Shown here: positions 154 to 62,589 of the stretch, in pieces
Layout: each line of letters opens with the position of its first letter
Numbering within the stretch: the first letter of the stretch is position 1
Assembly (NCBI GenBank): GCA_964407105.1
Contig: CAYOUG010000001.1
Location: forward strand, 164,273-228,272
Reading direction: 5' to 3'
DNA length: 64,000 bases
DNA from: an uncultured Candidatus Saccharibacteria bacterium
GTDB taxonomy: Bacteria > Patescibacteriota > Minisyncoccia > Phycocordibacterales > CALRHW01
Translations under genes and position numbers: made by a program
The notes under the pieces: generated by a model
The model's database searches: none
Told to the model about the DNA's origin: nothing
Seen by the model: the letters and a program-made list of their open reading frames with translations, nothing else

Positions 154-217
154 GTAGAAAGACATGTTTTTTGTTTGGTTGAAAAGAGAAAATACCGAAA
201 ATGCATATTGAAAAATG

Positions 218-276
218 ACTCGCACAGGCACGACGGCGCCGAGCGGAGCAGAAAAACCAGCAGGCTTTTACGCATG
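218..276 (-). repeat. family B GC-rich element, copy B1 (reverse orientation)
   Basis: Core shares CGACGGCGCCGAGCGGAGCAG... with reverse complements of 16758-16831 and 61234-61306; sits between a 30-bp near-perfect inverted repeat (185-217 / 277-306). Confidence 0.7.
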
Positions 277-374
277 CATTTTTCAATATACATTTTCGGT
301 ATTTTCTATTTTATAAACCTTGCAAAATAGCCACATTTCCCCTACACTAAAAACCTATTTCATTTAAAAAACAT

Positions 375-1475
375 ATGGAAAAGGAAGATACAAAAAAGCA
401 TTATACAAACATAAAAATCTCTAAACTCGACAACTCAGAAATAGAAATTGAGGGAGAAATTCTTGCAGAGTATTTTGATGAACATCACAAAAACGCCCTA
501 AAAAAACTTCTAGCCAACGCAGAGGTGCCGGGTTTTCGAAAAGGCAATGCTCCAGAGAATGTTGTTCTTCAACACTACAGCGACGCCAAATTACTTGAGG
601 GCGCGGCGCAAGACGCACTCGACTCGCAATATTGGAATATTTTATCCGACAATTCCATTAAAGCTCTAGGAGAACCATCCGTAACAATCACCAAACTAGC
701 AAAAGGTAATCCTCTTGGATTTAAAATTAAAACGGCAGTGTTTCCAGAATTTACTTTGCCTGATTATAAAAAAATTGCGAAGAAAATTGCTGAAGAAAAA
801 GAAGAAGCGATAGAAGTCGAACAAAAAGAAGTCGACGAAATTTTAAAACAACTTCAACATTCAAAATTACACGAAAAAGAAGGTCGTGTTGAGCATAACC
901 ATTCATCAGACGATCATTTGGCCGACACAGAGCACAAGCATGATGAAAAGGACTTCCCTCCTCTAGATGACACTTTCGCACAATCTGTTGCTCCAGAATT
1001 TAAAACTCTCGCTGAACTTACAGAAAAAATCCGCGAAAACATGCTCGCTGAAAAAAAATATAAAGCAAAAGAAAAAAAACGTTTAAGTATTCTTGAAGCA
1101 CTTGTAGAAAAAACAGAAATTTCTGTTCCTGAAATTTTACTAGAAAGTGAACTTCAGAAAATGATCGCGCAATTTAAAGATGATGTTGCAAAAGCTGGCC
1201 TTACATACGAAACATACTTAGAACACGCCAAAAAAACTGAAGCGGATATTCGAAAAGAATGGCGAGAAAATGCAATGAAACGAGCAAAAACCCAACTCAT
1301 TTTAGGAAAAATTGGACGTGAAGAAAAAATTGAACTTGATGAAGCTGAAGTTACAAGAGAACTTGAACACATTATGTCTCATCACAAAGATGCAGATCGT
1401 TTTCGCGCACGAATGTTTATTGAAAACATGATGCAAAACGAAAAAGTACTAGAGTTTTTGGAAGGAGTAAAGTAA
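375..1475 (+). CDS. tig: trigger factor (ribosome-associated chaperone)
   Basis: N-terminal ribosome-binding motif PGFRKGNAP, typical TF length and domain order; has a His/Asp/Glu-rich low-complexity insertion. Confidence 0.85.
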   Translation: MEKEDTKKHYTNIKISKLDNSEIEIEGEILAEYFDEHHKNALKKLLANAEVPGFRKGNAPENVVLQHYSDAKLLEGAAQDALDSQYWNILSDNSIKALGEPSVTITKLAKGNPLGFKIKTAVFPEFTLPDYKKIAKKIAEEKEEAIEVEQKEVDEILKQLQHSKLHEKEGRVEHNHSSDDHLADTEHKHDEKDFPPLDDTFAQSVAPEFKTLAELTEKIRENMLAEKKYKAKEKKRLSILEALVEKTEISVPEILLESELQKMIAQFKDDVAKAGLTYETYLEHAKKTEADIRKEWRENAMKRAKTQLILGKIGREEKIELDEAEVTRELEHIMSHHKDADRFRARMFIENMMQNEKVLEFLEGVK

Positions 1476-1518
1476 GCAATACAAAAACATGCGTTTCTGA
1501 GCATCACCTAAATGAAAA

Positions 1519-1548
1519 GCCCCTAGTCGCGTGTGCGCGGCTAGGGGC
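1519..1548. terminator. GC-rich hairpin between convergent tig and the GC-rich ORF
   Basis: GCCCCTAGTCGCG-tgtg-CGCGGCTAGGGGC stem-loop; no clean U-tract. Confidence 0.4.
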
Positions 1549-1592
1549 TTGAGACCAAGTGATAGTGCTGTAGTGAAGCTAGAGCACGGAAC

Positions 1593-2297
1593 TCAGTCAG
1601 GATCGACTCGCGAGAGAAGGAATGCGAAGCTGTACAAACCGTGACCCGCTCGATTCCAATTATCCTCTGGCCAGACAACATCAAGTGTCTTTGCAGAATC
1701 TATAAAGCGTCTTTCAGAGACCGTTGGAGAATGATCGGCCTGGCGAATTCCGAGCCGAATCTGATTTTGATCCTCCACCTCGTGCATCATGGTCAGATTC
1801 CAAAGACCCATCTCCCTAACCTGGTTGTCCGTGAAAGCTTCACGAAGGAGGAAACATGCTTCTAAAGGAAGTGGCCGCAGACAACGTCTCGAAGCATCGG
1901 CGACGACCATATCGGTCGTCAAAAGCTGTCTGCTAGATGCAAGCCCACGCCCATCTATGATGGCGACAGTGTACTCCACACCGCTCGTCACTTCAAACTT
2001 GGACGATCGCACTGATTCAGACCACTGACTCCTCATGCCATTCCTCAACTCCATGCCCAGATGACGCTCCCAATCATTTTTCGTCATACCAGTCGAGGTG
2101 AGAGTAGTATAGACAACGTTACCGTTGCGACGCCACCTAACCTCCGGCTTCGTGATACGCCACTCGCTGGAGTTCACCAGCCGAATAGCTTCGTTGGGAT
2201 CTTCTGCGCCCGTCTGCCTCATAATGTTCTTCAACAAAGCATTGAGCTTCATGATCTCTGGGAGAACATTAACAATAACAAGTGGATTCTTTTCCAT
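1593..2297 (-). CDS. hypothetical protein, encoded in a GC-rich islet
   Basis: Longest ORF in a visibly GC-rich block (about 1560-2340) with GC-rich codon usage unlike its neighbours; no recognisable motif. Confidence 0.5.
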   Translation of the reverse strand: MEKNPLVIVNVLPEIMKLNALLKNIMRQTGAEDPNEAIRLVNSSEWRITKPEVRWRRNGNVVYTTLTSTGMTKNDWERHLGMELRNGMRSQWSESVRSSKFEVTSGVEYTVAIIDGRGLASSRQLLTTDMVVADASRRCLRPLPLEACFLLREAFTDNQVREMGLWNLTMMHEVEDQNQIRLGIRQADHSPTVSERRFIDSAKTLDVVWPEDNWNRAGHGLYSFAFLLSRVDPD

Positions 2298-2508
2298 GTC
2301 TGTCCTTCTGGGCTAAATCGCCCAAAGACTTTTTTCCTCTAATCCGAGGAAGGAGCACAGACCATTATGGTCATAGCCAGTAGGTGCCGATTCATTTCGG
2401 CCTCTTTTGGCTATGACCATCTCGCAATTTCTCAAAGAACGTTATGGAAATATTATACCTTTATTTATATATAACGTCAAGTACTTTGTACATCATATTA
2501 CACCCTTG

Positions 2509-3207
2509 TTAAGCCATCAAAAAGAGCGCACTAGACACAACAGCCGCCGTCTCTGCCCGTAAAATATATGTACCCAGCGTGCGAACCTCTGCGCTTCGTG
2601 TAGAAAAAAGTGCAAGTTCTGCATCACTCCACCCACCCTCAGGGCCAACAAAAAGACTCACGCTACCACTACCGTGTTTCTCTGTATCTTGTAGTGAAGT
2701 ACCAGACGGATCAAAAACAAAAACATGCGTTTCTGCGCATAGTGTAAGAGCATCTTCAGGCGACAAAGCCTTATGTATGTAAGGCAACGTTCCCCTTCCA
2801 GACTGTTCGCTTGCCTCAATTACAATTTTTTCTAAACGTTCAACATTTAAATCTTTTTTTTCTGAGCGCTCCGCGAGTATTGGAACAATGTGTGACACGC
2901 CAAGCTCGGTAGCTTTTTGCGCGACCCATTCAAAATTATCTTTTTTAATGAGCGCAACACACAGCCACACTTCGCGCGGTGGCGCTGGCACTTCTTTTGC
3001 ACCATCCACCGTCACCTCCGCTTTTTCTTTAGACAGCATTTCAATGATGCACTCATATTCTTTTCCTGATCCATCAAAAAGCACCACTTTGTTGCCCGCA
3101 CCAAGACGAAAAACTTTTTTCCATTGATGCAGTGTGTCGGGGTTGGTAATAGAAAGAGTAGAACGACTTCCTATTGTTTCATGTATAAAAAATCTATGTA
3201 ATCGCAT
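2509..3207 (-). CDS. rsmE: 16S rRNA (uracil1498-N3)-methyltransferase RsmE family
   Basis: C-terminal GPEGGWS and LRAETA motifs typical of RsmE; length 232 aa. Confidence 0.8.
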   Translation of the reverse strand: MRLHRFFIHETIGSRSTLSITNPDTLHQWKKVFRLGAGNKVVLFDGSGKEYECIIEMLSKEKAEVTVDGAKEVPAPPREVWLCVALIKKDNFEWVAQKATELGVSHIVPILAERSEKKDLNVERLEKIVIEASEQSGRGTLPYIHKALSPEDALTLCAETHVFVFDPSGTSLQDTEKHGSGSVSLFVGPEGGWSDAELALFSTRSAEVRTLGTYILRAETAAVVSSALFLMA

Positions 3208-3323
3208 GTCATTAGTGTAGACACGGCTGAGAAAAAAGCAATAGTTTCAGCGCGCAACATACCCGTTGCGTCGCGCGCCTCTTTGATATACTATTATTGA
3301 ACTTTATTATTAACCACAAAAAC

Positions 3324-3893
3324 ATGTTAATCCCAACAGTGATTGAAAAAACAAATTTTGGCGAGCGAGCATATGATATCTACTCTCGCCTACTTAAAGA
3401 GCGCATCATTTTTCTTGGTGGTCCAATTGATGATTACATGGCAAATATTGTGATTGCCCAACTTCTTTTTCTTGAATCAGAAGATCCAAAAAAGGATATT
3501 TCCTTGTATATCAATTCTCCAGGAGGATCTGTGACAGCAACTCTTGCAATGCTTGATACAATGAATCATGTAAAACCAGACGTTTCTACTGTGTGTGTTG
3601 GTATTGCAGCTTCGGGCGCAGCAATTCTTCTTGCTGGTGGAGCAAAAGGAAAACGACTTCTCCTTCCAAACGCTGAGGTGATGATTCATCAGCCGTGGGG
3701 TGGGGTGCAAGGACAAGCGACAGATATTGAAATCACCGCAAAACAAATTCTTAAAACCCGAGCAAAACTTAATAAAATTCTTGCGGACGCAACAGGTCAA
3801 TCACTTACACAAATAGAAAAAGATGTAGAACGTGATTATTTTATGGATGCCTCTGAAGCAAAAAAGTACGGGATTATTGATAAGGTGTTGTAA
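3324..3893 (+). CDS. clpP: ATP-dependent Clp protease proteolytic subunit
   Basis: [46 protein letters not shown]; start placed at the internal ATG 3324, the six-frame ORF begins at 3297. Confidence 0.9.
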
Positions 3894-3911
3894 AGATTAA
3901 AAAATCATATG

Positions 3912-3946
3912 AAAAAAGCGACCATCAAAAGATGGTCGCTTTTTTC
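3912..3946 (+). terminator. intrinsic terminator after clpP
   Basis: AGCGACCATC-aaaa-GATGGTCGCT hairpin followed by a T-run. Confidence 0.7.
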
Positions 3947-4183
3947 AATACTTTTTACAAACCTCGACAAAATGCCCTTTTTCTTATACTATGAAATTGT
4001 TCATTTTATTTGAAATTTTTTAATTTAGATATTGTCGCTTTAAATTTCTTGACCGTATGACTCTAGCCATTATTTCTCTACTTCCCTTCTTTCCGTTACA
4101 CAAGAAAACATAGTCGGATAAGCCTGCTATAGCGAGGCACTTCTATTCGTGCAGGAAGACAAAGCGTCGGTATTCGCACACAT

Positions 4184-5817: not shown

Positions 5818-6090
5818 ATGAACAAACAAGCAATTGCAGAAGCAGTGCATGTAAAATTGGGTGGAACAAAAGCTCAAGCAGAAGAATTGGTAGATATGAT
5901 AATTGATTCTATCGTTTCGACACTAAAAAAAGGAGACGAGGTTTCAATTGCTGGTCTTGGTATTTTTTCTACAAAAACACGAGCCGCACGACAAGCTCGA
6001 AATCCTCGCACAGGAGAATCTATTCAGGTTCCTGCGATGCGAGTTCCAAAGTTTCGCGCAGCTAAAGCACTCAAGGACGCGGTGAAATAG
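5818..6090 (+). CDS. hup: DNA-binding protein HU
   Basis: 90 aa; GxGxF..RxxRxGRNPxTGE..I HU signature. Confidence 0.9.
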   Translation: MNKQAIAEAVHVKLGGTKAQAEELVDMIIDSIVSTLKKGDEVSIAGLGIFSTKTRAARQARNPRTGESIQVPAMRVPKFRAAKALKDAVK

Positions 6091-6124
6091 TGTTTCGAGT
6101 CTAAAAAGAAAACAGCTTTCGTAG

Positions 6125-6187
6125 GGGGTCTCGAGCGCGACGGCGCGAGAGCTTCAGGAATTTTTAAGCTTCAAAAATTCCGTACCC
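6125..6187 (+). repeat. family A element copy A2, in the loop of the hup terminator hairpin
   Basis: 63-bp core flanked by CGTAG direct repeats and a 24-bp local inverted repeat (6097-6120 / 6188-6215); internal hairpin shows compensatory change GGAATTTTT/AAAAATTCC versus GGATTTTTT/AAAAAATCC in the other copies. Confidence 0.85.
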
Positions 6188-6344
6188 GTAGAAAGCTGTT
6201 TTCTTTTTTAGACTCTATTACTTTATACTAATCAACAAAAAACGGCCTCCTCGCTAACCCGCTCGAAGGCTGTTTTTTTATTGTTTTTTAATTGCTTTTA
6301 TTATTTAAATCATTAGTATAATCCTAGAGAAAGGAGTGTTTGCA

Positions 6345-6695: not shown

Positions 6696-6698
6696 ACC

Positions 6699-7921: not shown

Positions 7922-7924
7922 ATG

Positions 7925-15827: not shown

Positions 15828-16712
15828 ATGGGATCAATTTCAATCAAGAAGATTCTTATACTTCTTTGTGTTGTATTTGTATTAGGTATTGGTGCGGTTA
15901 CAACGTTAAACCGCAAAAACACACCCACAGTAATTCAGCCGACAGTTGAAAAAGTTTCTGTTACATATCCAATAGAAAAAGTGATCGGTAAGTCGGTGGA
16001 AGGAAGAAATATTTCTGCATATACTTACGGAAACGGACAAAAAAATCTCGTTTTTGTAGGCGGTATTCATGGTGGCTATGAGTGGAACAGTGTTTTGCTC
16101 GCTTATGAATTCATGGATTATTTAAAAGCAAACCCCGCAATAATTCCAGAAAAAATTAAGGTGACCGTCATTCCGTCCCTAAATCCTGATGCGGTTTTTA
16201 AGGTTGTGAACAAAGAAGGACATTTTGTTGCAACAGACGTATCAAAAAATGAAGAACTTCTCTCCTCTGCACGTTTTAACACTCACAACGTAGACCTCAA
16301 TCGCAATTTTGATTGCAATTGGGCATCAACGAGCATGTGGAAATCAAAAGTAGTAAGCGCGGGTACTGCGCCACATTCTGAACCAGAAGCAAAAGCTTTT
16401 GTGGATTTTGCTCTTGCAGAAAAACCAGCAATGGTTCTTTTCTGGCATAGTCAAGCTGGTGCAGTGTATGCCTCTTTCTGTGATGGGGAAATTTTGCCTG
16501 AAACAGACACACTGTATAAAGCATACTCAGCGACTTCTGGATACAAAGCCGAAAAAACATTCACAAATTATTCAATCTCTGGTGACGCGGGGGATTGGCT
16601 TGCAAAAATTGGTATTCCCGCTATTTCTGTAGAGCTCACCGACCACCAAAACACTGAGTTTGAGCGAAACTTAAAGGGAATATTGGCGTTATTTGAATAC
16701 TTTAAGAAATAG
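15828..16712 (+). CDS. M14-like zinc-carboxypeptidase superfamily protein (murein-peptide peptidase-like)
   Basis: GGIHGGYEW, NPDA, DLNRNFDCNW and WHSQ motifs consistent with His-Glu-His ligands; tandem paralog of the upstream gene. Confidence 0.6.
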   Translation: MGSISIKKILILLCVVFVLGIGAVTTLNRKNTPTVIQPTVEKVSVTYPIEKVIGKSVEGRNISAYTYGNGQKNLVFVGGIHGGYEWNSVLLAYEFMDYLKANPAIIPEKIKVTVIPSLNPDAVFKVVNKEGHFVATDVSKNEELLSSARFNTHNVDLNRNFDCNWASTSMWKSKVVSAGTAPHSEPEAKAFVDFALAEKPAMVLFWHSQAGAVYASFCDGEILPETDTLYKAYSATSGYKAEKTFTNYSISGDAGDWLAKIGIPAISVELTDHQNTEFERNLKGILALFEYFKK

Positions 16713-16757
16713 AGGCTGGCGTTTGAACATCGTAAGAAAAACCCCCTAAAATGTGTT

Positions 16758-16831
16758 TCGAAAACCACGCATAAATCGCTGCTGCGATTTTGCTACGCTC
16801 GGCGCCGTTGCGCCTGCGCGATGCTTTTCTC
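16758..16831 (+). repeat. family B GC-rich element, copy B2
   Basis: Core ATCGCTGCTGCGATTTTGCT..CGCTCGGCGCCGTTGCGCCTGCGCGA shared with 61234-61306; embedded between a 20-bp inverted repeat (16737-16757 / 16832-16851). Confidence 0.75.
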
Positions 16832-16890
16832 AACATATTTTAGGGGGTTTTCTTGCATTTATATGGCATTTATGCTATTCTCATCACACA

Positions 16891-17163
16891 ATGCTTACGA
16901 AAACAAAGAAACAAAAGGTTATTGCGGTGGCAAAAATCCACGATGTGGATACGGGCTCACCGGAAGTTCAAATCGCCCTCCTTTCTAAAAGAATCGAGGA
17001 TTTAGCGGCTCATTTAAAGAAAAACACCAAAGATACTCATTCTCGACGTGGACTTCTTCAAATGGTGGCAGATCGCCAAAAGCACATGAAATATTTGCAG
17101 AAAAAGAGCACTAAACGCTTCAATGCAATCATGAAAAAGCTTGAACTCAAGAAAAAAGCCTAA
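16891..17163 (+). CDS. rpsO: 30S ribosomal protein S15
   Basis: 90-aa S15 (..HSRRGLLQMV..RQKHMKYL); the six-frame ORF starting at 16753 is an artefactual extension through element B2. Confidence 0.9.
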   Translation: MLTKTKKQKVIAVAKIHDVDTGSPEVQIALLSKRIEDLAAHLKKNTKDTHSRRGLLQMVADRQKHMKYLQKKSTKRFNAIMKKLELKKKA

Positions 17164-17979: not shown

Positions 17980-17990
17980 AAAATATATCA

Positions 17991-18021
17991 AAAACACACC
18001 CAAGACATCAGGTGTGTTTTT
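17991..18021 (+). terminator. intrinsic terminator
   Basis: AAAAACACACC-caagacatca-GGTGTGTTTTT. Confidence 0.6.
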
Positions 18022-18029
18022 GATATATA

Positions 18030-19025: not shown

Positions 19026-19081
19026 TTTTTTCTCTAGCGTATTTGTGTGTGGGTTGCGAGGGTTATGTATTCTGCTATGAT

Positions 19082-19453
19082 ATGGAACATATGACAGAAA
19101 TAAATACAACACATTTCAAAGAAAAACTTGAAACAGAATTAGCAAAAGTGAAAGCTGAACTTAAAACGGTTGGTATAGAAGATCCAGCAAGTCATGATTG
19201 GCAAGCATCACCACCAAGCACAGATGACACTTCTTCAGCAGATGAAAATGAGATGGCTGATCGAATAGAAGAGTATGAAGATAACGCTGGAATTTTAAAA
19301 GAACTAGAAATTCAATATAACGAAATTGTAGTAGCACTTAAAAAAATTGAAGCTGGTACTTATGGTATTTGTGAAATAGACGGTGGACAAATAGAGCACG
19401 AAAGACTTGAGGCAAATCCAGGAGCAACAACGTGCATGAAACACATGAAGTAG
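19082..19453 (+). CDS. DksA/TraR-family protein with a degenerate (C-D-C-H) zinc finger
   Basis: Coiled-coil N-terminus; C-terminal ICEIDGGQIEHERLEANPGATTCMKH aligns to DksA CxxC..RLEAxP..CxxC with Cys-to-Asp and Cys-to-His replacements. Confidence 0.55.
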   Translation: MEHMTEINTTHFKEKLETELAKVKAELKTVGIEDPASHDWQASPPSTDDTSSADENEMADRIEEYEDNAGILKELEIQYNEIVVALKKIEAGTYGICEIDGGQIEHERLEANPGATTCMKHMK

Positions 19454-19495
19454 GTTGCTGGTGTTTTGAAACAAAAAGAAAAAGTGGTGTTTAGG

Positions 19496-19558
19496 GGGGT
19501 CTCGAGCGCGACGGCGCGAGAGCTTCAGGATTTTTTAAGCTTCAAAAAATCCGTACCC
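19496..19558 (+). repeat. family A element copy A3
   Basis: 63-bp core identical to A1; in the loop of a local inverted repeat (GTGGTGTTTAGG / CCTAAACACCAC) just after the DksA-like gene. Confidence 0.85.
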
Positions 19559-19690
19559 CTAAACACCACTTTTTCTTTTTGTTTCACACTCACGTTATCC
19601 ACAGTGATATCGTTTTCTTTAACATTTCTTTAGGGAAACTTTATCTCCGCTTTGATGTAATACAGACATTAGCAACAGTTTCACTGTTAT

Positions 19691-24512: not shown

Positions 24513-25370
24513 ATGAAAGCTAAAAAATCACTCGGACAAAATTTTTTAAAATCAAAACACGCACTACGTGTGATTGTTGAATCTGCAAATATTGCGCCCA
24601 CTGATACCGTGCTTGAAATAGGGCCGGGAAAGGGGGCGCTTACCGCCGGACTTTTAGAAAAAGCGGGACACGTCATAGCGATAGAAAAAGACGATGAACT
24701 TGTGCCTTTTTTGCAAGAAATGTTTGCCGCAGATATTGCGACAAAAAAACTTACACTTATTCATGGAGATATTATGGAAATGACGATTGAGGAAATTTTT
24801 GCACAAGCACGAAATGCTGGCGCAAGCGATGTAACGGCAGAATCATACAAACTCGTTGCAAATATTCCATACTATATTACAGGTGCACTCATTCGAATGT
24901 TTTTGGAGACGGCGCGCCAGCCACGCCTCATGGTGCTCATGCTCCAAAAAGAGGTGGCGCGCCGCATCACCGCAACCGACAAAAAAGAAAGCTTACTCTC
25001 ACTTTCAGTAAAAGCATACGGCACACCTAAATATATAGAGACCGTCAAAGCAATGTTTTTTTCACCACGCCCAAACGTAGACTCCGCAATTTTACTTATT
25101 AAAGATATTTCAAAAGCATTTTTCAAACGGGACACAGATACAAAAGAAACATCTGGCATCCAACCAACCACACACGCCGAAGAAACTTTTTTCAAAATTA
25201 TCAAAGCCGGCTTTGCACACAAAAGAAAACTTTTGGTGCGCAATCTTGAAAGCGATTTTTCAAAAGAAAAAATTTCTACAACTTTTGCTTCGTGCAACCT
25301 TTCTCTAAAGGCGCGTCCAGAAGATCTTTCTCTTGATCAGTGGAAGTGTGTAACAACACAAATAAAATAA
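24513..25370 (+). CDS. rsmA: 16S rRNA (adenine1518/1519-N6)-dimethyltransferase
   Basis: SLGQNFL start and GPGKGALT SAM motif. Confidence 0.9.
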   Translation: MKAKKSLGQNFLKSKHALRVIVESANIAPTDTVLEIGPGKGALTAGLLEKAGHVIAIEKDDELVPFLQEMFAADIATKKLTLIHGDIMEMTIEEIFAQARNAGASDVTAESYKLVANIPYYITGALIRMFLETARQPRLMVLMLQKEVARRITATDKKESLLSLSVKAYGTPKYIETVKAMFFSPRPNVDSAILLIKDISKAFFKRDTDTKETSGIQPTTHAEETFFKIIKAGFAHKRKLLVRNLESDFSKEKISTTFASCNLSLKARPEDLSLDQWKCVTTQIK

Positions 25371-25396
25371 AACAAAAAACTTTTATATCTTTCTTC

Positions 25397-25459
25397 GGGT
25401 ACGGATTTTTTGAAGCTTAAAAAATCCTGAAGCTCTCGCACCGTCGCGCTCGAGACCCC
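25397..25459 (-). repeat. family A element copy A4 (reverse orientation)
   Basis: Reverse complement is a 63-bp core with one mismatch to A1; within a local inverted repeat (AAAACTTTTATATCTTTC / GAAAGATATAAAAGTTTT) between convergent rsmA and the 25506 gene. Confidence 0.85.
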
Positions 25460-25505
25460 CTACGAAAGATATAAAAGTTTTTTATTTTATTTTTTTGTTT
25501 AAACT

Positions 25506-25859
25506 CTATGACGTACCCACTATTGTCATAATACCTTGTGCTGGCCACTGATCTAAACATTCACCCTCATCCCACGTACCGCAAGATGTTGGTACTCCAG
25601 AATGAAGCCCCAAAACCCAATTTCCGGGAGTAAAAATATTTCCATTCGCAAAAAGTGTAGATAATCCTGGAAAAAACAAAAATGCACCACCAACCGGAGG
25701 AGAAACCTGAATCCACAACGCACCAGGACACGTGCATACTCGCACATAAGTAATCATTCCACCAAATGGCAAAAAAGCTTCCGCTTTTTTATACACAAAC
25801 ATACTACTACTCAAAATAACCAAAACGAAAACCATAAAAGCTAAAATTTTTCTCTTCAT
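25506..25859 (-). CDS. small secreted hypothetical protein
   Basis: Signal anchor MKRKILAFMVFVLVIL; Cys-containing mature part. Confidence 0.4.
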   Translation of the reverse strand: MKRKILAFMVFVLVILSSSMFVYKKAEAFLPFGGMITYVRVCTCPGALWIQVSPPVGGAFLFFPGLSTLFANGNIFTPGNWVLGLHSGVPTSCGTWDEGECLDQWPAQGIMTIVGTS

Positions 25860-25860
25860 A

Positions 25861-26949
25861 TTAGATGACGTTAAGTATAGCAGGTGAATTTTTATCACTC
25901 ACACCATTGATGTTAACAACATAAATAAAGATTTTTAATCCACTCACACCATTACCACCATTATCTTTAAAAATATCACCCAGATTTGGAAGGTTCGATG
26001 GGGCTTCTAAAGTAAAAGTGAGGGTTTTTCCATCAGAAGAAGAAAGATTTGAAAAATTACCAAAAGAAGTATGAACACTATTTCCTGTTGGTGTAAAATT
26101 TTCACCTAAAATAGTAATTTGAGAACCGATAGACGCAGAGATAGGGGAGATAGAAATAATCTTTGGAACAAAACCGCTATTGGCCGTAACTACAAAATAT
26201 GAGTTACTTTCACTTTTTCCTTTTGAATTACTTACCTCAATATCATAAATACCAACCGGAATTGTTTGTGGAATTGTAAAAACAATGTTGTTTGCATTTA
26301 CTGAAGAAACGTTGCTCACAATATGTGGTCCAAAATGGATACTATTGCCTGTCGACAAAAATCCCGTACCAGTAAGAGAAAGGGTACTGCCATAACCTCC
26401 ACTGTTTGCAGACATAAATGCAAGCTGAACTTTTGAATTATCTGCTTCTGTAAACAAACTAAATAAATCAAATTGATTTAAGCTTTGTGTGGGTTGTGTT
26501 GGTTGTGTAGATTCCTGAACCGGCAAAACATTTTCGTAAGCTGTTCCGGATTGTGCTGGTGCAGTTTTTGGAAAACCATCATTTGTGCTTATTGAAGAGG
26601 GTGAATTAAGCACTGCGCGAGTCGATGGTCCAACAAAACCGGTACCAACACCCAAACCAAGGGGGGTTAAAATTTGATCTGCATGTTCATTTTGAAAAGC
26701 AATTACAGCCTGTTTTGTGGCTGGACCAAAATACATTGTTTCATTACCCAAAGAACCCGAACCGCTTTGCGCTACAACAGTTTTTTCATTTGTGTTTAAT
26801 GTTTTTTGAAGCTCCAAAACATCAGGGCCCACATCTCCAAAAGATAAATTACGAACAAAAGTATAAGCAAAAGATGTTTTTGGTAAAAACGAAAACACAG
26901 AAAAAATAAAAATGAGTGTGTAAACAGAAATACAAAAATATCGATACAT
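25861..26949 (-). CDS. secreted protein with a peptidoglycan-binding (PG_binding_1-like) domain and IPT/TIG-like repeats
   Basis: Signal peptide; FGDVGPDVLELQKTLN..YFGPATKQAVIAFQ matches the PG-binding pattern; two Ig-like repeats with GTGF..GNS.HFG. Confidence 0.55.
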   Translation of the reverse strand: MYRYFCISVYTLIFIFSVFSFLPKTSFAYTFVRNLSFGDVGPDVLELQKTLNTNEKTVVAQSGSGSLGNETMYFGPATKQAVIAFQNEHADQILTPLGLGVGTGFVGPSTRAVLNSPSSISTNDGFPKTAPAQSGTAYENVLPVQESTQPTQPTQSLNQFDLFSLFTEADNSKVQLAFMSANSGGYGSTLSLTGTGFLSTGNSIHFGPHIVSNVSSVNANNIVFTIPQTIPVGIYDIEVSNSKGKSESNSYFVVTANSGFVPKIISISPISASIGSQITILGENFTPTGNSVHTSFGNFSNLSSSDGKTLTFTLEAPSNLPNLGDIFKDNGGNGVSGLKIFIYVVNINGVSDKNSPAILNVI

Positions 26950-46549: not shown

Positions 46550-46560
46550 TTTTTGGGTTA

Positions 46561-46597
46561 CAAACAAAAAAGAGCCGAAAGGCCCTTTTTTGTTTGT
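46561..46597. terminator. bidirectional intrinsic terminator after tyrS
   Basis: CAAACAAAAAAGAGCC-gaaa-GGCCCTTTTTTTGTTTG. Confidence 0.75.
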
Positions 46598-49790: not shown

Positions 49791-50204
49791 ATTTAATTAT
49801 TTCACTTGACATTTTAGACAATGTATGATACATTTATGGGGAACTTGAAATATGGCGGTGTCAAACGATCAAAGACAGACAGTCCTTGATTTTTTTCTCG
49901 CCTTGGGTAATATATGAGACTCCCACTTTATGGGGTACTCCTTTGTCAATCCAAGATATAAATCTCTAAGCAACGAGGCCTTACGGCCTAGTAAGATTTC
50001 TTCAGAGGACATTCTGGTTACCACCTTGTGTGGTTTGCTGGGGTTATCCTATGTGAAATGTTTAACTTTTGGTACGAATATTAAAAGTGTTGCTTAGAGA
50101 TTTATGTCTTTGATTGTTTTAAAAACAATTCATCTCTACTAGTCTAATTATTCATAGGAAAAGAGTTTCTGCAATCTTGTAAAACAAAAAATCTGTTTCT
50201 TAAT

Positions 50205-53085: not shown

Positions 53086-53158
53086 AAAATTTGTTGTAAC
53101 CCCCCACCCAACACTCTCTCACTAAAGCGCTTCGCTAACCCGTTCGAGAGTGTTGGGT
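53086..53158. repeat. exceptionally long perfect hairpin (23-bp GC-rich stem, 27-nt loop) upstream of tsaE
   Basis: GTAACCCCCCACCCAACACTCTC ... GAGAGTGTTGGGTGGGGGGTTAC; loop contains TCGCTAACCCGTTCGAG, similar to the loop at 6251-6268. Confidence 0.7.
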
Positions 53159-53172
53159 GGGGGGTTACACCC

Positions 53173-56240: not shown

Positions 56241-56256
56241 TTTTTACACAATATTT

Positions 56257-57400: not shown

Positions 57401-57511
57401 ATCGATCCGATGATCAAAAAACAAAAAACGTCCCGCCCGCAGAAGTCGCACGACTCTCGGGCGGCTTTTGTTTTGTAAATTAAAAAACTGCTAAAAGCAG
57501 TTTTTTTCTAG

Positions 57512-57584
57512 TCCGCCCACCAGGACTCGAACCTGGGACCAAGTGCTTAAAAGGCACCTGCTCTACCAACTGAGCTATAGGCGG
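57512..57584 (-). tRNA. tRNA-Lys (anticodon UUU)
   Basis: Hand fold: D-arm GCTCAGTTGGTAGAGC, anticodon loop CTTTTAA, T-loop GGTTCGAGTCC; unusual 5' C1 paired to G72. Confidence 0.85.
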
Positions 57585-57626
57585 ATATCAAGAAAATATA
57601 CCAGAATTGGGTTAAAAGTCTATATC

Positions 57627-58545: not shown

Positions 58546-58547
58546 TT

Positions 58548-59378
58548 TTAAAAATCGTAACTATACACATCTACAAGTCGGCCTTGAGCATCCCAAAGAC
58601 GAAGTGTGTCTTTTTCTTTATACCAATACGGGAATTTACTATTTAGAAACAAACGCCACTCTGGTTTATAAAAATCTTTATCTTCAACATGCAGTCCGAC
58701 ACAAGCTCCGTACGACATTGTTTTTTCAATATATGCTTTGCAGTATGATGGCAAATTCGGTAATTTTTTTGGTGGAAGTTCACATCTAGAAAATGAATGA
58801 AGGTAGTCCATGCACTCATCGTTATCCTCTACTTTTTTTGGTAAAAAATCTTCATTTTCTGGAAGTGGACACTGAAGCGGAAGAGTGGGTGTAAAAAGAT
58901 ATTTTTCCTCATAATAACCCGTGCATAGATTTGTTCGAAAAGAAAAACTCATCGGTGATTTTCCTGATGAAAGAATAACTTTGTCACCCTTTTTTAAAAT
59001 CATTGTTTGTACTGGTAAAATTTCAGGAAAAGGGGATGCAGTACCAATAACTGCTTTATTTCCGGTTGTATCACTTGTAATAGTCCAACCCGTAAACACA
59101 ATCGGATCTCTAAAAGATGATTTGATTGTTATGTATTCTGATCCGGCAAACGTTCCGGGGTTTTTTATTCCAATAATTCCTACATAATTTTTATATGGTG
59201 AGACAGCGCCAAAATTTGTTGTTTGTGCACCCAACACTTCTCCTTTTGTGCTTTGTGAACTGGATGTTTTTGAGTTAGTTTTTTTTGTAGACGTAAAGAG
59301 CTTACCGTCTTGATAGAGTGTCATGATTATTGCAATAGCAATAATTGTTGTGAGTATAAATGGTCCACCGTTTTTCAT
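58548..59378 (-). CDS. membrane-anchored protein with a lamin-tail-domain-like region and a Cys-rich C-terminal domain
   Basis: N-terminal TM helix; SEYITIKSS..IVFTGWTITSD..KGDKVIL matches the lamin-tail-domain pattern. Confidence 0.4.
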   Translation of the reverse strand: MKNGGPFILTTIIAIAIIMTLYQDGKLFTSTKKTNSKTSSSQSTKGEVLGAQTTNFGAVSPYKNYVGIIGIKNPGTFAGSEYITIKSSFRDPIVFTGWTITSDTTGNKAVIGTASPFPEILPVQTMILKKGDKVILSSGKSPMSFSFRTNLCTGYYEEKYLFTPTLPLQCPLPENEDFLPKKVEDNDECMDYLHSFSRCELPPKKLPNLPSYCKAYIEKTMSYGACVGLHVEDKDFYKPEWRLFLNSKFPYWYKEKDTLRLWDAQGRLVDVYSYDF

Positions 59379-60292
59379 ATTGTATATTTTTTTTGATGTG
59401 TATCGCAGAAATGTGCACTTCGACCGCCAACTATTTTGCGCTCTATTTTGCCTGTACAACCACGCTTACGACACAGTTCGTTTTTCCGTCGATATACGTT
59501 GTGTTCATTTTGAAATTTTCCCATTTCTCCATGAATATTTCGATAATCAGACATTGAGTCGCCACCGAAATCGATGCCTTTGGCGAGCACTTTTTGAGTA
59601 AAACGATGCATTATCCTAAGAGCCTGGTCGGGAATAGCCTTGACGAATGTTTCTGGATGAACACCACTATACCACAATATTTCATCTGAGTAAATATTAC
59701 CAATACCAGAAATTAGTGTTTGGTCCATAAGAACTGTCTTTATTTTTCCTTTAGGTTTTTTGTATAAACGATTTTTGAAAATGGAAAATGTAAATTTTTT
59801 GTCGGTAGGTTCGGGTCCAAGTTCACGAAGGTCAACAGACTGCGCAAGCGTGTCGGTGGAAAGTAGTGTTACCTTTGCAAATTTACGTGTGTCAGAAAGA
59901 GCAACGTGTTTTTTGTTTGAGAGAATAATTACAAAATGTACTCGTGCATTAAATGGGTCGTCGCGCAGTGGCCCAGCGTGTTTAGCAATCCAAGTTTTTT
60001 CATTTTTTTCATACTGTCCAAAAAGTAGGTGGCCGGTCATTTTCATATGCACTAAAATGGTGTGATTTCCTTCCAGATGTATGAGTACGTTTTTACCACG
60101 TCTTCCAACAGATAAGATTTTTTTACCACACACCGCTTTTCGAAAACTTTTAAAAAAAGTTGGATTTTTTATATTTTTTTTACCAATATAAAAACTACTA
60201 TTGTAGTCTGTCCAAACATCTACAATTTTTAGATTGGGCAAGACATTTTGCAAGCCTGTGGCAGTGGTGTGTACTTCTGGTAGTTCTGGCAT
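59375..60292 (-). CDS. mutM: formamidopyrimidine-DNA glycosylase
   Basis: MPELPEV N-terminus and C-terminal zinc finger CxxC..CxxC. Confidence 0.9.
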   Translation of the reverse strand: MPELPEVHTTATGLQNVLPNLKIVDVWTDYNSSFYIGKKNIKNPTFFKSFRKAVCGKKILSVGRRGKNVLIHLEGNHTILVHMKMTGHLLFGQYEKNEKTWIAKHAGPLRDDPFNARVHFVIILSNKKHVALSDTRKFAKVTLLSTDTLAQSVDLRELGPEPTDKKFTFSIFKNRLYKKPKGKIKTVLMDQTLISGIGNIYSDEILWYSGVHPETFVKAIPDQALRIMHRFTQKVLAKGIDFGGDSMSDYRNIHGEMGKFQNEHNVYRRKNELCRKRGCTGKIERKIVGGRSAHFCDTHQKKYTI

Positions 60293-60331
60293 AGTGAGGA
60301 TTATATCCTACCGCATGTTATACTTTTTGCC

Positions 60332-61180
60332 ATGAAACGTACCATTTTTCTGATTATCGCTCTTTCTTTGTTTGGTTTTATGATATACACCGGCAAAGCT
60401 GATGCTCCAGTGCTCGACGCAAAAATACAACAAACACAACAAGAAAAAATTAAAGTTCTTATTGTGGTGGGACATGACAATGTGGTGTGGGGTGCGAAGT
60501 TTGGAGCGCTTAAAGAGGTTGTCCTCAATAGAATTTTAGGGCAATATCTTTTTGAACTTCTTTCTTCAGATCCTCTTTTTGAACCCACAATTACTCAGCG
60601 TGATGGTAAATATATTCCGGAGCTTGCAGATTTCTTTGATACACAAGAAGAAAAAATACATAAATATCGTGCAGAGCTTAAGCAAACATTTATTAAAAAA
60701 GAAGAGCCGGGCGACGTTGATGATATCAAACACAACAAAGTGACTGAGGGTGTGGCTCAGGTACTTTACGGTACCAATATGTGGGCACAAGAAAAAAATT
60801 TTGATCTCATCTTGCACGTACATTTTAATGATTATCCTGGTCGACCACGTACAAGTGCAGGAAAATATTTTGGCTTCGCTGTGTATGTACCAGATCACAC
60901 GTTGCAAAATGCGCAGAAAAGTATTGAGCTTGGAAAAGTACTTCACAAAACTCTTGCAGAATATCAACCAGAAAGTAATTTATTTATTGAAAAAGTGGGT
61001 GTGATAGAAAGTGAAGATTTGATCGCACTCGGCGCAAAAAATAGTTTGAGTATTCCAGCGGTACTTATTGAGTATGCGTATATTGCTGAATCACGACTTA
61101 ATGATGAGCGACGAGAAGGGGAGTTGCGCGCGATGGCAAAGCAAACTTATGATGGGCTGAAGGAGTTTTATCAGAAGTAG
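60332..61180 (+). CDS. secreted N-acetylmuramoyl-L-alanine amidase-like (Amidase_3-like) protein
   Basis: Signal peptide; candidate metal-binding pattern IVVGHDN, LHVHFND, LIEYAYI. Confidence 0.45.
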   Translation: MKRTIFLIIALSLFGFMIYTGKADAPVLDAKIQQTQQEKIKVLIVVGHDNVVWGAKFGALKEVVLNRILGQYLFELLSSDPLFEPTITQRDGKYIPELADFFDTQEEKIHKYRAELKQTFIKKEEPGDVDDIKHNKVTEGVAQVLYGTNMWAQEKNFDLILHVHFNDYPGRPRTSAGKYFGFAVYVPDHTLQNAQKSIELGKVLHKTLAEYQPESNLFIEKVGVIESEDLIALGAKNSLSIPAVLIEYAYIAESRLNDERREGELRAMAKQTYDGLKEFYQK

Positions 61181-61233
61181 GACAAAAAACCAAAACATGT
61201 GTTGAGAAGAGAAAAATAAAAACAGTGGTGTGT

Positions 61234-61306
61234 CTCGCGATACGCGTCAATCGCTGCTGCGATTGCTGCTCCGCTCGGCGCCGTCGCGCCTGCGCGAGTT
61301 CGCTTA
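61234..61306 (+). repeat. family B GC-rich element, copy B3
   Basis: Core ..ATCGCTGCTGCGATTGCTGCTCCGCTCGGCGCCGTCGCGCCTGCGCGAG.. within a 20-bp perfect inverted repeat (61214-61233 / 61307-61326) between convergent genes. Confidence 0.75.
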
Positions 61307-61320
61307 ACACACCACTGTTT

Positions 61321-62589
61321 TTATTTTTCTAACATCTTTCGCAACTCCTCTTCTGCTACTGCGCGATCACTCCACGGTTCTTTTGTTCCACCTGCGCGCA
61401 TGATATATGGATCAGTTCCTTTTCCAGTAATAAGTATAGCGTCACCGGCGCGCGCTTTGGAAATAGCTTTTGCAATAGCTTGTCTGCGATCCATAATGAT
61501 TTCACAGGGTTTTTCAACAATTGCCTTTTTCATTTCCTCCACAATGCTTAAAGGATCATCATCGTAAGGATCTTCGTCGGTAAGAATAATTTCATCACAA
61601 TATGAGTCGGCGATTTGTGCCATTTCTGGTCTTTTCCAAGTATCACGTCCACCACCGGTATTACCAAGTACACATATTTTTCGTTGAGTAGGAAATGCTT
61701 GGTAAAGCTTTTCAAGAGAGTCTGCGGTGTGTGCATAGTCGACAATAACATCAAAATTTTGTCCCATCTCGACACGTTCAACACGCCCTTTGATTGGCGC
61801 AATATGTGAAAGTGCACGGGCGATTGTTTCAACAGGAATTCCCATTGCGTGTGTTACTGTTGCTGCAGCAAGAGCATTGTATATATTAAAAAGTCCCGTG
61901 AGCGGCATGAAAATTTTTGTACCATGAAATGTGAATGTAACAGAATGTTGATTTTCTTTGTTATCAAGCGTATACGGTTTTGCGTCATTAATTGAAAATG
62001 GAACAGTGTGTTTTATTTTTGGTAAAGAAAGATAAAATGTGGATTCGCTATCGTCAAGATTTGCTACCATCCACGTTTCTTTATGCGAACGAGTAAGTGC
62101 TAAAGCGATAGACCTTTTTGCGTCACGGTATTTTTCAAACGAACCATGTGACTCAATATGTTCTGGCGAAAGATTATTGAATATAAGTGCATTAAGTTCT
62201 ATGCCGTGATGACGATATTGTCTCGCACCCTCAGAGGTTATTTCTATTACTGCATGAGTACACTGAGCATTTACTGCTTCCCGTAAAAAATTTTGCATAA
62301 AAAAGCGTCCCGGCATCGACATTTTATACATATTCGGACGACTTTTTTCGGCAATTTTAAAACGAATAGTATTTGAAAGCGCAGTTTTTTTGCCCGCTTC
62401 TTCTAGTATTGCGTTGATAAGTTCTGTCGTACTAGATTTTCCTTTTGTGCCCGTAACACCTATTACTATAAGTTTTTTTGAAGGAAAGCCGTTGAGTATT
62501 GTGCCTGTGTATGCAAGAAGTATGTGATATGCAGGTTGAAAAAAATTAAACATTGGTTTAGGAATAATTTTTTTAAGAAATGAAAACAT
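61321..62589 (-). CDS. Mur ligase family protein (MurE/MurF-like central and C-terminal domains, short N-terminus)
   Basis: GVTGTKGKSST P-loop; C-terminal DYAHTADSLEKL, GGGRD..KRP and TDEDP motifs. Confidence 0.7.
   Translation of the reverse strand: MFSFLKKIIPKPMFNFFQPAYHILLAYTGTILNGFPSKKLIVIGVTGTKGKSSTTELINAILEEAGKKTALSNTIRFKIAEKSRPNMYKMSMPGRFFMQNFLREAVNAQCTHAVIEITSEGARQYRHHGIELNALIFNNLSPEHIESHGSFEKYRDAKRSIALALTRSHKETWMVANLDDSESTFYLSLPKIKHTVPFSINDAKPYTLDNKENQHSVTFTFHGTKIFMPLTGLFNIYNALAAATVTHAMGIPVETIARALSHIAPIKGRVERVEMGQNFDVIVDYAHTADSLEKLYQAFPTQRKICVLGNTGGGRDTWKRPEMAQIADSYCDEIILTDEDPYDDDPLSIVEEMKKAIVEKPCEIIMDRRQAIAKAISKARAGDAILITGKGTDPYIMRAGGTKEPWSDRAVAEEELRKMLEK

Follow-up and report, generated by a model that had tools for sequence, protein, structure and literature searches.

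What is a GC-rich sequence doing, three times over, between long AT-rich inverted repeats in the genome of a CPR bacterium? CPR/Patescibacteria genomes are tiny and streamlined, and they are considered to contain few repeats and little mobile DNA. In the window, by which we mean the whole 64,000-nucleotide stretch analyzed here, a first-pass annotation had described this sequence, family B, as an element inserted between such repeats. We put at about one in two the probability that family B is a small, non-coding cassette resembling REPs and MITEs, which forms the GC-rich, Y-shaped tip of hairpins laid out like bidirectional terminators. It behaves like an exchangeable cassette and not like an ordinary transposon, with its mode of spread and its function being what we infer from sequence comparison.

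Copies, module plan, and fold of family B

Scanning the window with a 26-nt core motif returned three matches, at 220-245 (minus strand), 16796-16821 (plus), and 61272-61297 (plus), compared with none in 100 shuffles. With nhmmer, the full elements extend over 213-282 (minus), 16760-16829 (plus), and 61242-61299 (plus). Together with their arms they form the following modules:

182-312, minus strand: B1 module, arms 182-217 and 277-312, core 218-276
16738-16851, plus strand: B2 module, arms 16738-16767 and 16822-16851, core about 16766-16823
61210-61330, plus strand: B3 module, arms 61210-61240 and 61300-61330, core 61242-61299

Whole modules fold with z scores of −7.6 to −11.7, and none of 200 shuffles was equally stable. 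Motif scan, nhmmer, and folding bear out the first-pass annotation's three GC-rich copies with a shared core, and the composition is as extreme as described, at 61-71% GC in the cores, 25-39% in the arms, and 38% in the whole window. The conserved unit is about 59 nt long, or about 71 nt including a semi-conserved GAAAAG/CTTTTC stem base, instead of the roughly 45 bp first proposed. Family B is a genuine GC-rich repeat between long AT-rich inverted repeats, with arms 87-94% complementary. These repeats are near-perfect, as annotated, but longer than the annotated 20-30 bp, reaching 36 bp in the window.

B1 (arms of 36 nt, 94% complementary) follows the upstream gene, whose stop codon is at 44-46, and precedes the promoter region of tig (375-1475); it adjoins the family A module A1 at 63-180, as had been noted; its arms recur at a contig end of a 95%-identical strain (L034). 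B2 (30 nt, 87%) follows an M14 peptidase gene (15828-16712), starting 26 nt past its stop codon, with rpsO (16891-17163) downstream, and the module is also found in a strain contig (L026). B3 (31 nt, 90%) is flanked by convergent amidase (60332-61180) and Mur-ligase (61321-62589, minus strand) genes, and the Mur-ligase stop codon falls within its 3′ arm. The orthologous site is filled in L020 and filled but flipped in L005.

Beyond the window, pattern scans found 25 loci in five CPR (Paceibacterota/Parcubacteria-type) MAGs and seven metagenome loci, showing the family to be dispersed among related genomes of a small group of ultra-small CPR bacteria; two of the metagenome contigs, L027 and L032, appear chimeric. 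The scans gave no match in viral contigs. Over the sequences collected, nhmmer reported 36 B and seven A matches, and the copy number of family B is low.

Read from end to end, each intact module consists of an A-run, 4-6 variable base pairs, TTT or CTC, GAAAAG, the 59-nt core, CTTTTC, the mirror-image stem, and a T-run. The A residues in alignment columns 12-15 and the T residues in columns 105-108 are present in 19-22 of the 23 aligned copies. RNAalifold and an independent count of pairs agree that the core folds into two hairpins at a three-way junction. Pairing in hairpin 1 reaches 99.6%, and five of its ten pairs covary; all 30 arm pairs have changes on both sides, with 88% of arm cells paired. 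None of 500 shuffles equaled these values, and slid controls were only 42-56% paired. Substitutions concentrate in the stems and are compensated, while the loop of hairpin 1 is near-constant (TGCT in 17/23 copies) and the unpaired junction bases of the core are invariant. CGTC occurs in family B only as the tetraloop of hairpin 2. Because the search patterns preset hairpin 2 and part of the core, the invariance of these parts is in part an effect of the search. The ordered 59-71-nt alignment and the compensatory changes in hairpin 1 rule out similarity limited to low-complexity GC runs.

A covarying stem under a near-constant loop is the classic signature of a hairpin that is read out, and the core could be a structured RNA, either a protein-binding module in a 3′ UTR or a small RNA freed by RNase III, with arms that only present or excise it. 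RNase III cuts long double-stranded stems, as in rRNA processing, and the perfect arms of 19-41 bp are putative substrates. The invariant unpaired junction and the retention of the core between genomes with gene nucleotide identities of only about 68-72% fit this reading as well. Nevertheless, we consider it quite improbable, given that orthologs retain the core in either orientation to the upstream gene (for example L001/L004/L024 and L014/L018), equally well conserved in each, and that the arms avoid G-U pairs (573 Watson-Crick, 4 G-T, and 18 A-C). Nor did Rfam 15 contain a family that matched B at gathering score; only six tRNAs passed in the window, and E-value mode returned far sub-threshold matches, chiefly to miRNA-precursor models with long hairpins.

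Arms, borders, and exchange of the hairpin tip

Over all copies the arms measure 19-41 bp, with a median of 28 including the GAAAAG stem base. Conservation between copies is partial and confined to the innermost 6-9 bp (GAAAAG/CTTTTC); the outer arms are specific to their locus. Conservation declines gradually outward from the core, and the element has no sharp border. Among 25 copies, no consistent target-site duplication was seen at the repeat boundaries: 13 had no direct repeat, ten had one of 2 nt, and one had one of 3 nt. A single 5-nt boundary repeat was rejected as a target-site duplication, being an artefact of an internal loop.

These observations bear on the insertion view of the first-pass annotation, worked out here as a classical MITE with a core of about 89 nt and short terminal inverted repeats TTTGAAAAG...CTTTTCAAA, put into terminator loops by a structure-specific transposase acting in trans, in which case the 4-6 variable base pairs and the A/T runs would derive from the original terminator. 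Such targeting has precedent in IS1397 and ISKpn1, which target the loops of REPs. In its favor, the distance from the core to the A-run and T-run varies little and amounts to about one canonical terminator stem (5-9 bp), all three families (A, B, and C) are placed alike, relatives carry plain terminators in the same slots, and module presence differs between genomes. Against it stand the tapering conservation, the lack of a target-site duplication, the few copies, and a Pfam scan of 15 window ORFs, a minority of the total, in which neither a transposase domain nor a RAYT was found. Among the sites compared, there was also no empty site with the same arms around a short, unrelated loop. We regard this reading as unlikely, although a dedicated transposase or RAYT may be encoded elsewhere in these genomes.

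The suggested comparison with relatives was run, and it did not bear out insertion into older repeats; the same arms were never found both uninterrupted and element-free. The sole uninterrupted hairpin with the same arms, in L009 at about 3870, has a loop made of the final 8 nt of an A element and is therefore a deletion product; the A copy was lost between 7-nt TCAAAAA repeats, leaving a plain hairpin. Because of the fixed spacing of A-run and T-run, the co-evolution of the arms with the core site, and their capacity to grow by inverted copying, we take the arms to be part of the module and not an independent target.

The arms of orthologs differ by paired substitutions, with homology still recognizable between some of them. 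In L009, a perfect 33-bp repeat is a copy of the last codons and stop codon of the upstream gene. Arm pairing, paired substitutions, and extension over a gene end all fit template switching during replication, the known outcomes of which are arm homogenization, spacer inversion, and arm expansion (PMC8604942, PMC13100816, PMC8794818).

The tip itself is exchanged, both among loci and across families A and B. L007 has a B core and L009 an A core in a homologous inner stem, in genomes that are about 94% identical, and the slot at 19467-19586 holds an A module in the window and B modules in STL-PAT9 (L014) and the TrH MAG (L018). A doubly substituted CGT/ACG variant of hairpin 1 occurs at six separate loci and is restricted to the TrH and Baikal genomes; where the ortholog was recovered elsewhere (L016/L011, L025/L023), it has another variant. 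L010 and L014, two loci of one genome, have about 13-19 nt of arm in common, and whole modules including their arms could be the moving unit. The core is flipped in two of nine ortholog comparisons, flips that are provisional at read level because assembly with a k-mer shorter than the arm can get the orientation of a core between inverted repeats wrong.

These exchanges weigh on the idea that nothing moves and that the modules are ancient, vertically inherited terminators with a selected core and arms that drift with compensation. Six groups of sites are indeed occupied orthologously, in genomes with a nucleotide identity of only about 68-86%, and the recognizable arm homology agrees with such descent. 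We give it hardly any credence, however, in view of the A/B swap within one hairpin, the confinement of the hairpin 1 variant to one clade, the shared arm sequence, and the tandem A and B modules where a relative has 16 nt.

The other families in the window are built and placed as follows:

63-180, plus strand: A1 module, arms 63-86 and 157-180, in tandem with B1
6103-6208, plus strand: family A module, 3′ of the HU gene (5818-6090)
19467-19586, plus strand: family A module, 3′ of a DksA/TraR-like gene (19043-19453)
25361-25496, minus strand: family A module, between a convergent KsgA-type methylase gene (24513-25370) and an ORF at 25506-25898
53093-53171, minus strand: family C module, 27-nt core (reverse complement of GAACGGGTTAGCGAAGCGCTTTAGTGA), 26-bp locus-specific arms

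The architecture of family C matches that of A and B. Families A and B are related, as both contain a GC hairpin with a GWCG/CGWC loop and the 12-mer GCGCGACGGCGC, which has seven matches in the window against 0.03 expected. The common hairpin lies on opposite strands relative to the commoner orientation of each family, which also argues against the structured RNA described above. GTAG precedes three of the four A copies in the window (at 87, 6121, and 25397) and none of the A copies of other genomes.

The three families may be mobile DNA of a type not previously described, "hairpin-tip cassettes" that need no transposase, colonize terminator apices, and replace one another there. They would do so through copying guided by structure (template switching, or repair of breaks at the hairpin tip), which would also create and lengthen the arms. 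This broader proposal is tentative, and we lean against it.

Gene ends and a possible mechanism

In all cases with a callable flanking gene, the core of B or A is 0-62 nt away from a gene 3′ end. Several copies sit between convergent genes, with stop codons inside the arms, and the B modules have the layout of a bidirectional terminator, with A-run, stem, and T-run just past stop codons. Plain bidirectional terminators are present in the window at 3910-3947, 17983-18028, and 46560-46597; a simple scan for a terminator consensus cannot score the 59-nt branched apex. Relatives lacking A or B have plain A6-stem-loop-stem-T6 terminators upstream of tig and after the HU gene, the latter slot holding a plain terminator in L035 in place of family A. 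Upstream of tig, the terminator of more distant relatives is plain and unrelated, and STL-PAT9 has only 16 nt with no palindrome. STL-PAT9 also has a B module after tig, followed by another conserved hairpin downstream, and some modules, such as this one, look redundant. At the 25.4-kb site of the TrH MAG, neither a hairpin nor a module was evident.

The core might instead be a DNA-level site that is bound or cut as a duplex or as an extruded hairpin, for example by nucleoid proteins or gyrase, as at BIMEs, or by HUH-type nicking and recombination. The orientation-independence of the element, the DNA-like Watson-Crick perfection of the arms, and the GC hairpin common to A and B are consistent with this, as are the 6-bp palindromes in which the cores are rich (by eye, ACGCGT and GGCGCC in B, CTCGAG and AAGCTT in A, and AGCGCT in C). 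We hold it to be very unlikely, as duplex binding would not require compensatory changes in hairpin 1, no candidate protein was found, and transcription better explains the A-run/T-run plan and the tight association with gene 3′ ends.

We favor the reading of B as an exchangeable terminator tip, for which we propose the following mechanism. Transcribed from either side, the branched hairpin and its U-run would stop RNA polymerase and shield the 3′ end of the transcript. The core may have spread, and been homogenized, from one hairpin tip to another through template switching or copy-type recombination, and not by cut-and-paste transposition. The arms would be local sequence in which template switching within the hairpin during replication preserves complementarity, extends the repeat outward, and sometimes inverts the spacer. 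The strictly conserved unpaired bases suggest that a factor reads the fold, which could be a protein or the copying process itself.

If exchange, flipping, and deletion hold up, the terminators of these genomes are dynamic, modular structures, and if hairpin-tip cassettes are real, terminators in minimal CPR genomes are partly built and renewed by selfish DNA. The modules also offer a natural test case for how template switching makes and maintains long perfect hairpins. On the practical side, they break short-read assemblies and can be mis-oriented, which matters for the quality of CPR MAGs.

Comparison with known systems

REPs and BIMEs are palindromes of 20-40 bp tagged by GTAG and CGTC, with the unpaired tag at one end (PMC3733652). 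They lie mostly between convergent or co-directional ORFs, usually less than 20 bp from the 3′ end (PMC3733652), sometimes provide the stop codon, and have proposed roles in termination and mRNA stabilization (Di Nocera et al. 2013, PMC3733652). Family B resembles them in its GC-rich intergenic hairpins with heterogeneous stems, in the presence of several families per genome, and in its placement near such 3′ ends (0-62 nt). It differs in being a 59-71-nt junction of two hairpins instead of a single palindrome, in lacking an unpaired GTAG/CGTC end tag (CGTC being the loop of hairpin 2), in its locus-specific arms of 19-41 bp, in its low copy number, and in its CPR host.

MITEs such as the Correia elements of Neisseria, ERIC, and RUP form long hairpins and exert their effects as RNA. 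Like these, B is small, non-coding, intergenic, dispersed, and present or absent between relatives. MITEs have target-site duplications and share their terminal inverted repeats among copies, whereas B is conserved at its center and not its ends, its outer arms differ from locus to locus, and it has no duplication. An integron attC site has conserved outer R/L boxes and a variable center; this candidate was rejected, as B shows the opposite arrangement. A retron ncRNA was likewise rejected, with no reverse transcriptase adjoining and neighbors that comprise tig, M14 peptidase, rpsO, amidase, Mur ligase, HU, and KsgA genes.

Mitochondrial GC clusters are similar in being short GC-rich hairpin repeats between the genes of an AT-rich compact genome, and their families merge and shuffle, with a possibly recombinational spread, as those of B do. 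In yeast, GC42 clusters have a putative AG target-site duplication and substitutions concentrated in the loops (PMC4478555), and double-hairpin or repetitive hairpin elements occur in fungal and sponge mitochondria (PMC2800124). B, on the other hand, is non-organellar, varies mainly in its stems, has no duplication, and sits at the tips of terminator hairpins.

Template switching of the Ripley type, at quasipalindromes or short inverted repeats, accounts for the homogenized arms, spacer inversion, and outward repeat growth observed here. In family B the inverted spacers measure about 59 nt, compared with substitutions of 2-5 bp in the yeast cases (PMC8604942). Template switching is a mutational process and not an element family, and it leaves the origin and conservation of the core unexplained.

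Finally, B modules share with bidirectional intrinsic terminators the succession of A-run, stem, stem, and T-run after stop codons and between convergent genes. Where a plain terminator has a loop of 3-8 nt, B has a conserved, branched, GC-rich domain of 59 nt, and its arms are much longer and more AT-rich than a terminator needs, reaching past the A and T runs.

Family B copies and their branched fold

The window holds three copies of a GC-rich repeat, family B, each a core set between inverted-repeat arms that are specific to its locus. The family is real, as the first-pass annotation had it: the 26-nt motif CGCTCGGCGCCGTYGCGCCTGCGCGA, with up to 3 mismatches allowed, matched at 220-245 (reverse strand), 16796-16821, and 61272-61297 and never in 100 shuffles, and a profile search agreed, returning three full elements and no other B copy in the window. 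Profile searching also placed four window copies of family A, a sister repeat with the same layout.

182-312, reverse strand: module B1 (arms plus core), full element 213-282
16738-16851, forward strand: module B2, full element 16760-16829
61210-61330, forward strand: module B3, full element 61242-61299
63-180: family A module A1, which adjoins B1 upstream of tig (375-1475, trigger factor), as had been noted
6103-6208, 19467-19586, and 25361-25496: the other family A modules

B1, B2, and B3 can be aligned in order across ~59 nt, which rules out a similarity limited to low-complexity GC and makes the shared core longer than the ~45 bp first assigned to it. The extreme composition was confirmed, with 61-71% GC in the cores, 25-39% in the arms, and 38% in the window. 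Near-perfect inverted repeats do flank all three cores (36 nt at 94%, 30 nt at 87%, and 31 nt at 90% complementarity), with lengths of 30-36 nt instead of the 20-30 bp initially read.

Elsewhere, a hairpin-2 pattern recovered 25 loci, spread over five species-representative MAGs that all belong to the CPR: the Paceibacterota STL-PAT9, the Parcubacteria TrH-25oct19-271 (TrH) and Baikal-deep-G202 (Baikal), and two labelled Saccharibacteria. An independent pattern for the 5' half found B in 7 metagenome contigs, and no B copies were found in viral contigs. The window is syntenic with the B-bearing MAGs at 67-72% nucleotide identity and therefore comes from the same small clade; A and B are absent from more distant relatives, whose tig proteins are 65-72% identical. 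Loci and contigs from these related MAGs and metagenomes carry L numbers below.

Single-sequence folds, RNAalifold, and pair counting across 23 distinct B copies agree on a three-way junction that is closed by P1, a long stem made of the two arms, and carries two GC-rich hairpins. Hairpin 1 is exemplified by AATCGC-TGCT-GCGATT (base GCG/UGC), and hairpin 2 reads GGCGC-CGTC-GCGCC (base CGC/GCG). In the window, module folding gave z = -7.6 to -11.7, with none of 200 shuffles equally stable. Across the 23 copies, all 30 arm pairs were altered on both sides, with 88% of arm cells paired; hairpin 1 was 99.6% paired, covaried at five of its ten pairs, and kept a TGCT loop in 17 copies. None of 500 shuffles matched these pairing values, and structures slid by 1-3 columns paired only 42-56%. 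The invariance of hairpin 2 says little because it was fixed by the search patterns, and the restriction of its 6 G-U wobbles to the B strand reflects ascertainment bias, since 5 of them fall where the pattern permitted only C-to-T changes; the arms, read as a guide to the strand of a putative RNA, lean weakly the other way.

The modules follow a common plan: an A-run, 4-6 variable bp, TTT or CTC, GAAAAG, the core, CTTTTC, the mirror image, and a T-run at the end. Alignment columns 12-15, in the A-run, are A in 19-22 of the 23 copies, and the repeat often reaches past the A and T runs. Arms span 19-41 bp (median 28, including the GAAAAG stem base). An alternative small hairpin, TCGCG-CCTG-CGCGA followed by (G)TCTTTTC, occurs in all B copies (window 16806-16833; alignment columns 74-95); it shares sequence with the 3' arm of hairpin 2, so that the two are mutually exclusive. 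A simple terminator scan, which cannot score branched loops, picked up only this hairpin within B2.

Placement at gene ends

At every site with a callable flanking gene, the B or A core is 0-62 nt away from the 3' end of a gene. The upstream genes are housekeeping genes (M14 peptidase, amidase, Mur ligase, HU, DksA-like, KsgA, and tig). Several copies sit between convergent genes with stop codons inside both arms, as at window B3 and at locus L020, where the stops lie 6 nt from the core on either side. At L020 (5890-6010), the B arms provide the last codons and mirrored TAG stops of both convergent genes, an amidase (...GKQQK*) and a Mur ligase (...VNKQK*), each longer than its window counterpart; the inverted repeat has thus rewritten two protein C-termini. 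Near B2, the 136-aa ORF at 16753-17163 is ribosomal protein S15 with a true start at 16891 and a spurious in-frame N-terminal extension; because the B2 core is read through in this extension, gene-calling software may make rpsO too long at this site.

In relatives that lack A and B, these slots are occupied by canonical bidirectional terminators, which makes the modules positional equivalents of terminators. Upstream of tig, contigs L035 and L036 have the plain terminator AAAAACCCCGT-ctct-ACGGGGTTTTT and L037 has a hairpin with 19-bp arms; after the HU gene, L035 has ACAAAAAACCGCC-ttctg-GGCGGTTTTTTGT where the window has an A module. The modules also show the A-run/T-run layout typical of bidirectional terminators, and they presumably terminate transcription.

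Two other hairpins in the window deserve mention. One is conserved downstream of tig (aaaagcccctag..ctaggggctt; window 1514-1600 and STL-PAT9 locus L013 3630-3724) and is followed by a ~45-nt stretch, gtgatagtgctgtag..agagcac, that matches STL-PAT9 at 89% identity, much more than the intergenic sequence around it. Hairpin and stretch had no match in Rfam and may be an unannotated RNA or 3'-UTR element. The other, at 49947-50116, is a 28-bp inverted repeat (93% complementary) around a 114-nt spacer, unrelated to A, B, or the further family C; it had no match at the Rfam gathering score and may represent a gene for a structured RNA closed by a stem.

Relative to the upstream gene, B lies forward at ~9-10 sites and reverse at 3-4, a difference that is not significant. 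Such orientation independence is what a DNA-level protein site would give, yet that reading leaves the compensatory changes in hairpin 1 unexplained, and we consider it very unlikely. The covariation of hairpin 1 around a constant loop is instead what one would expect if the core were a functional RNA. The orientation independence and the scarcity of G-U pairs in the arms make this unlikely too: within the repeats we counted 573 Watson-Crick, 4 G-T, and 18 A-C pairs (7 of the A-C from one recurrent internal loop), so G-U is not tolerated as it would be in stems under RNA-only selection. The pairing perfection of the arms is DNA-like.

Exchange of cores and changes in the arms

A and B are related. 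Family A and the reverse complement of B have a homologous GC hairpin (TCGCG..GG-stem, GWCG loop, stem-CC, GAGCG), and the 12-mer GCGCGACGGCGC common to both matches the window 7 times with at most 1 mismatch against 0.03 expected. Scored by this shared hairpin, A favours the strand opposite to B with respect to the upstream gene. Family C, a 27-28-nt core with consensus GAACGRGTTAGCGAAGCGCTTTAGWGA, likewise sits between locus-specific inverted repeats, several with A and T runs, which indicates that the architecture of conserved tip and local arms is general in the clade.

Copies of family C
Window: 53093-53171
L001: 3559-3640
L003: 3407-3483
L023: 7940-8000

Where a close CAYOFR MAG has a C module between convergent genes (L001 3563-3631), STL-PAT9 has a ~0.98-kb insert (L004 2497-3476); this is probably a recent foreign acquisition, as it is GC-rich, encodes a 255-aa protein without a Pfam match, and has its own plain terminator.

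Orthologous sites differ in what they hold. Upstream of tig, between the same stop codon and promoter, the window has A1 and B1 (63-312) and STL-PAT9 has 16 nt without a palindrome; downstream of tig, a B module is present in STL-PAT9 and absent from the window. Neither a hairpin nor a module is evident in TrH at the A site near 25.4 kb. After the DksA-like gene, the slot is filled by A in the window, by B in STL-PAT9, and by B with a truncated A remnant in TrH. That remnant, GGGTACGGATTTATTTAAG (L018 7250-7350, minus strand), lies beside the B module, is flanked by the 28-bp direct repeat GATTTTAAGRACGTTACACAAAACAAAA, and resembles a scar left by some complex replacement. TrH and Baikal are ~94% identical across 4.2 kb, and one hairpin, with the homologous inner stem AAAAAGTGC(G)TTTG..AAG, carries B in TrH and A in Baikal. 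The neighbouring hairpin carries a full A in TrH; in Baikal the same arms are joined by TCCGTACC, the 3' end of A, as a result of deletion between two TCAAAAA repeats.

This deletion derivative is the only instance of flanking repeats approaching an uninterrupted state in a relative, and apart from it we found no empty site with identical arms among the orthologous sites compared. What recurs is the replacement of core by core. The earlier interpretation thus stands in part, as a repeat family between arms, and falls short as insertion into pre-existing repeats.

Core variants also recur across loci. One hairpin-1 variant with a double substitution, CGT/ACG, is present at six different loci, all in TrH and Baikal; at the two with an ortholog recovered in another clade (L016/L011 and L025/L023), the orthologs carry other variants. 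Purely vertical descent of the modules is contradicted by these clade-specific variants and by the A/B swaps, and is the least probable of the readings considered. A second variant, CGC-TACT-GCG, occurs without change at four non-orthologous loci from three genomes, and two STL-PAT9 loci (L010 and L014) have 13-19 nt of arm in common. We found no target-site duplication at B copies, and conservation declines gradually outward from the core with no sharp border. Together, the hairpin-1 variants, the shared arm, the missing duplications, and the gradual fade suggest that cores spread by copy-type exchange (gene conversion or template switching) and not by cut-and-paste transposition. A structure-specific transposase that inserts a MITE into terminator loops could account for the constant distance at which the A and T runs lie from the core, but it would be expected to leave duplications, sharp ends, and empty sites, and we regard it as a possible but rather unlikely source of the family.

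The arms change in concert. L001 differs from L024 and L017 at two arm positions, both compensated, and L009 differs from L002 by G to T in one arm and C to A in the other. In Baikal L009, a perfect 33-bp repeat has a 3' arm that is an inverted copy of the upstream gene's last codons and stop (ccctgttaa / ttaacaggg), an extension absent from TrH. As assembled, two of nine ortholog comparisons show the core turned round with respect to its flanking genes (L007 against L028, which are the same copy judging by a rare hairpin-1 variant in common, and L005 against window B3 and L020); a spacer can be assembled in either orientation when the assembler k-mer is shorter than the arm, which makes these two flips provisional, and the agreement of the other seven suggests that most orientation calls can be trusted. 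Polymerase template switching at inverted repeats has three documented outcomes, namely homogenised arms, an inverted spacer, and expanded arms (PMC8604942, PMC13100816, PMC8794818).

Assemblies are affected by these repeats. In metagenome contigs L027 and L032, the left flank of one B locus runs into the right flank of a different one, so both are probably chimeras, and many short-read contigs end exactly inside A or B cores (contig ends at L017, L021, L024, L026, L031, L034, and L038-L040). In exact-protein look-ups for strain-level presence or absence, contigs ended within the repeats, and one look-up gave no match. The A/B repeats fragment CPR assemblies and may scramble them. A rearrangement between close strains is indicated by L038 and L039: their HU proteins are identical and their A modules have matching arms, but upstream of RNase Y one carries FolB and others and the other carries the window's genes, RsmE and ClpP.

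Considering all of the above, B is most likely a non-coding, REP/MITE-like cassette, from which the hairpins of bidirectional terminators get their branched, GC-rich tip. As to mechanism, we infer that the branched hairpin would end transcription and protect the 3' end, that cores would spread via recombination or template switching, and that template switching would maintain the arms. The core's unpaired bases are conserved, and some factor would be expected to read them.

Comparison with known systems

Rfam gave no real match, either in gathering mode for the whole window or in E-value mode for two modules, and our literature search for these CPR elements found no description. Readings of B as a retron, attC site, group II intron remnant, or ribozyme were rejected on context or architecture. 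Comparison with REP elements and mitochondrial GC clusters places B among the small extragenic palindromic repeats. Its genomic distribution matches that of REP elements, and it is by distribution that we liken the two, not by the RAYT gene that helps to define REPs; the single 20-40-bp palindrome and the terminal GTAG or CGTC tag of REPs have no counterpart in B. Mitochondrial GC clusters and double-hairpin elements are, like B, GC-rich hairpin repeats in AT-rich DNA whose spread is possibly recombinational, but the GC clusters differ in having target-site duplications and loop-biased variation. Three features of B are unusual: a conserved centre within locus-specific arms, placement at the tip of terminators, and the exchange of cassettes between families.
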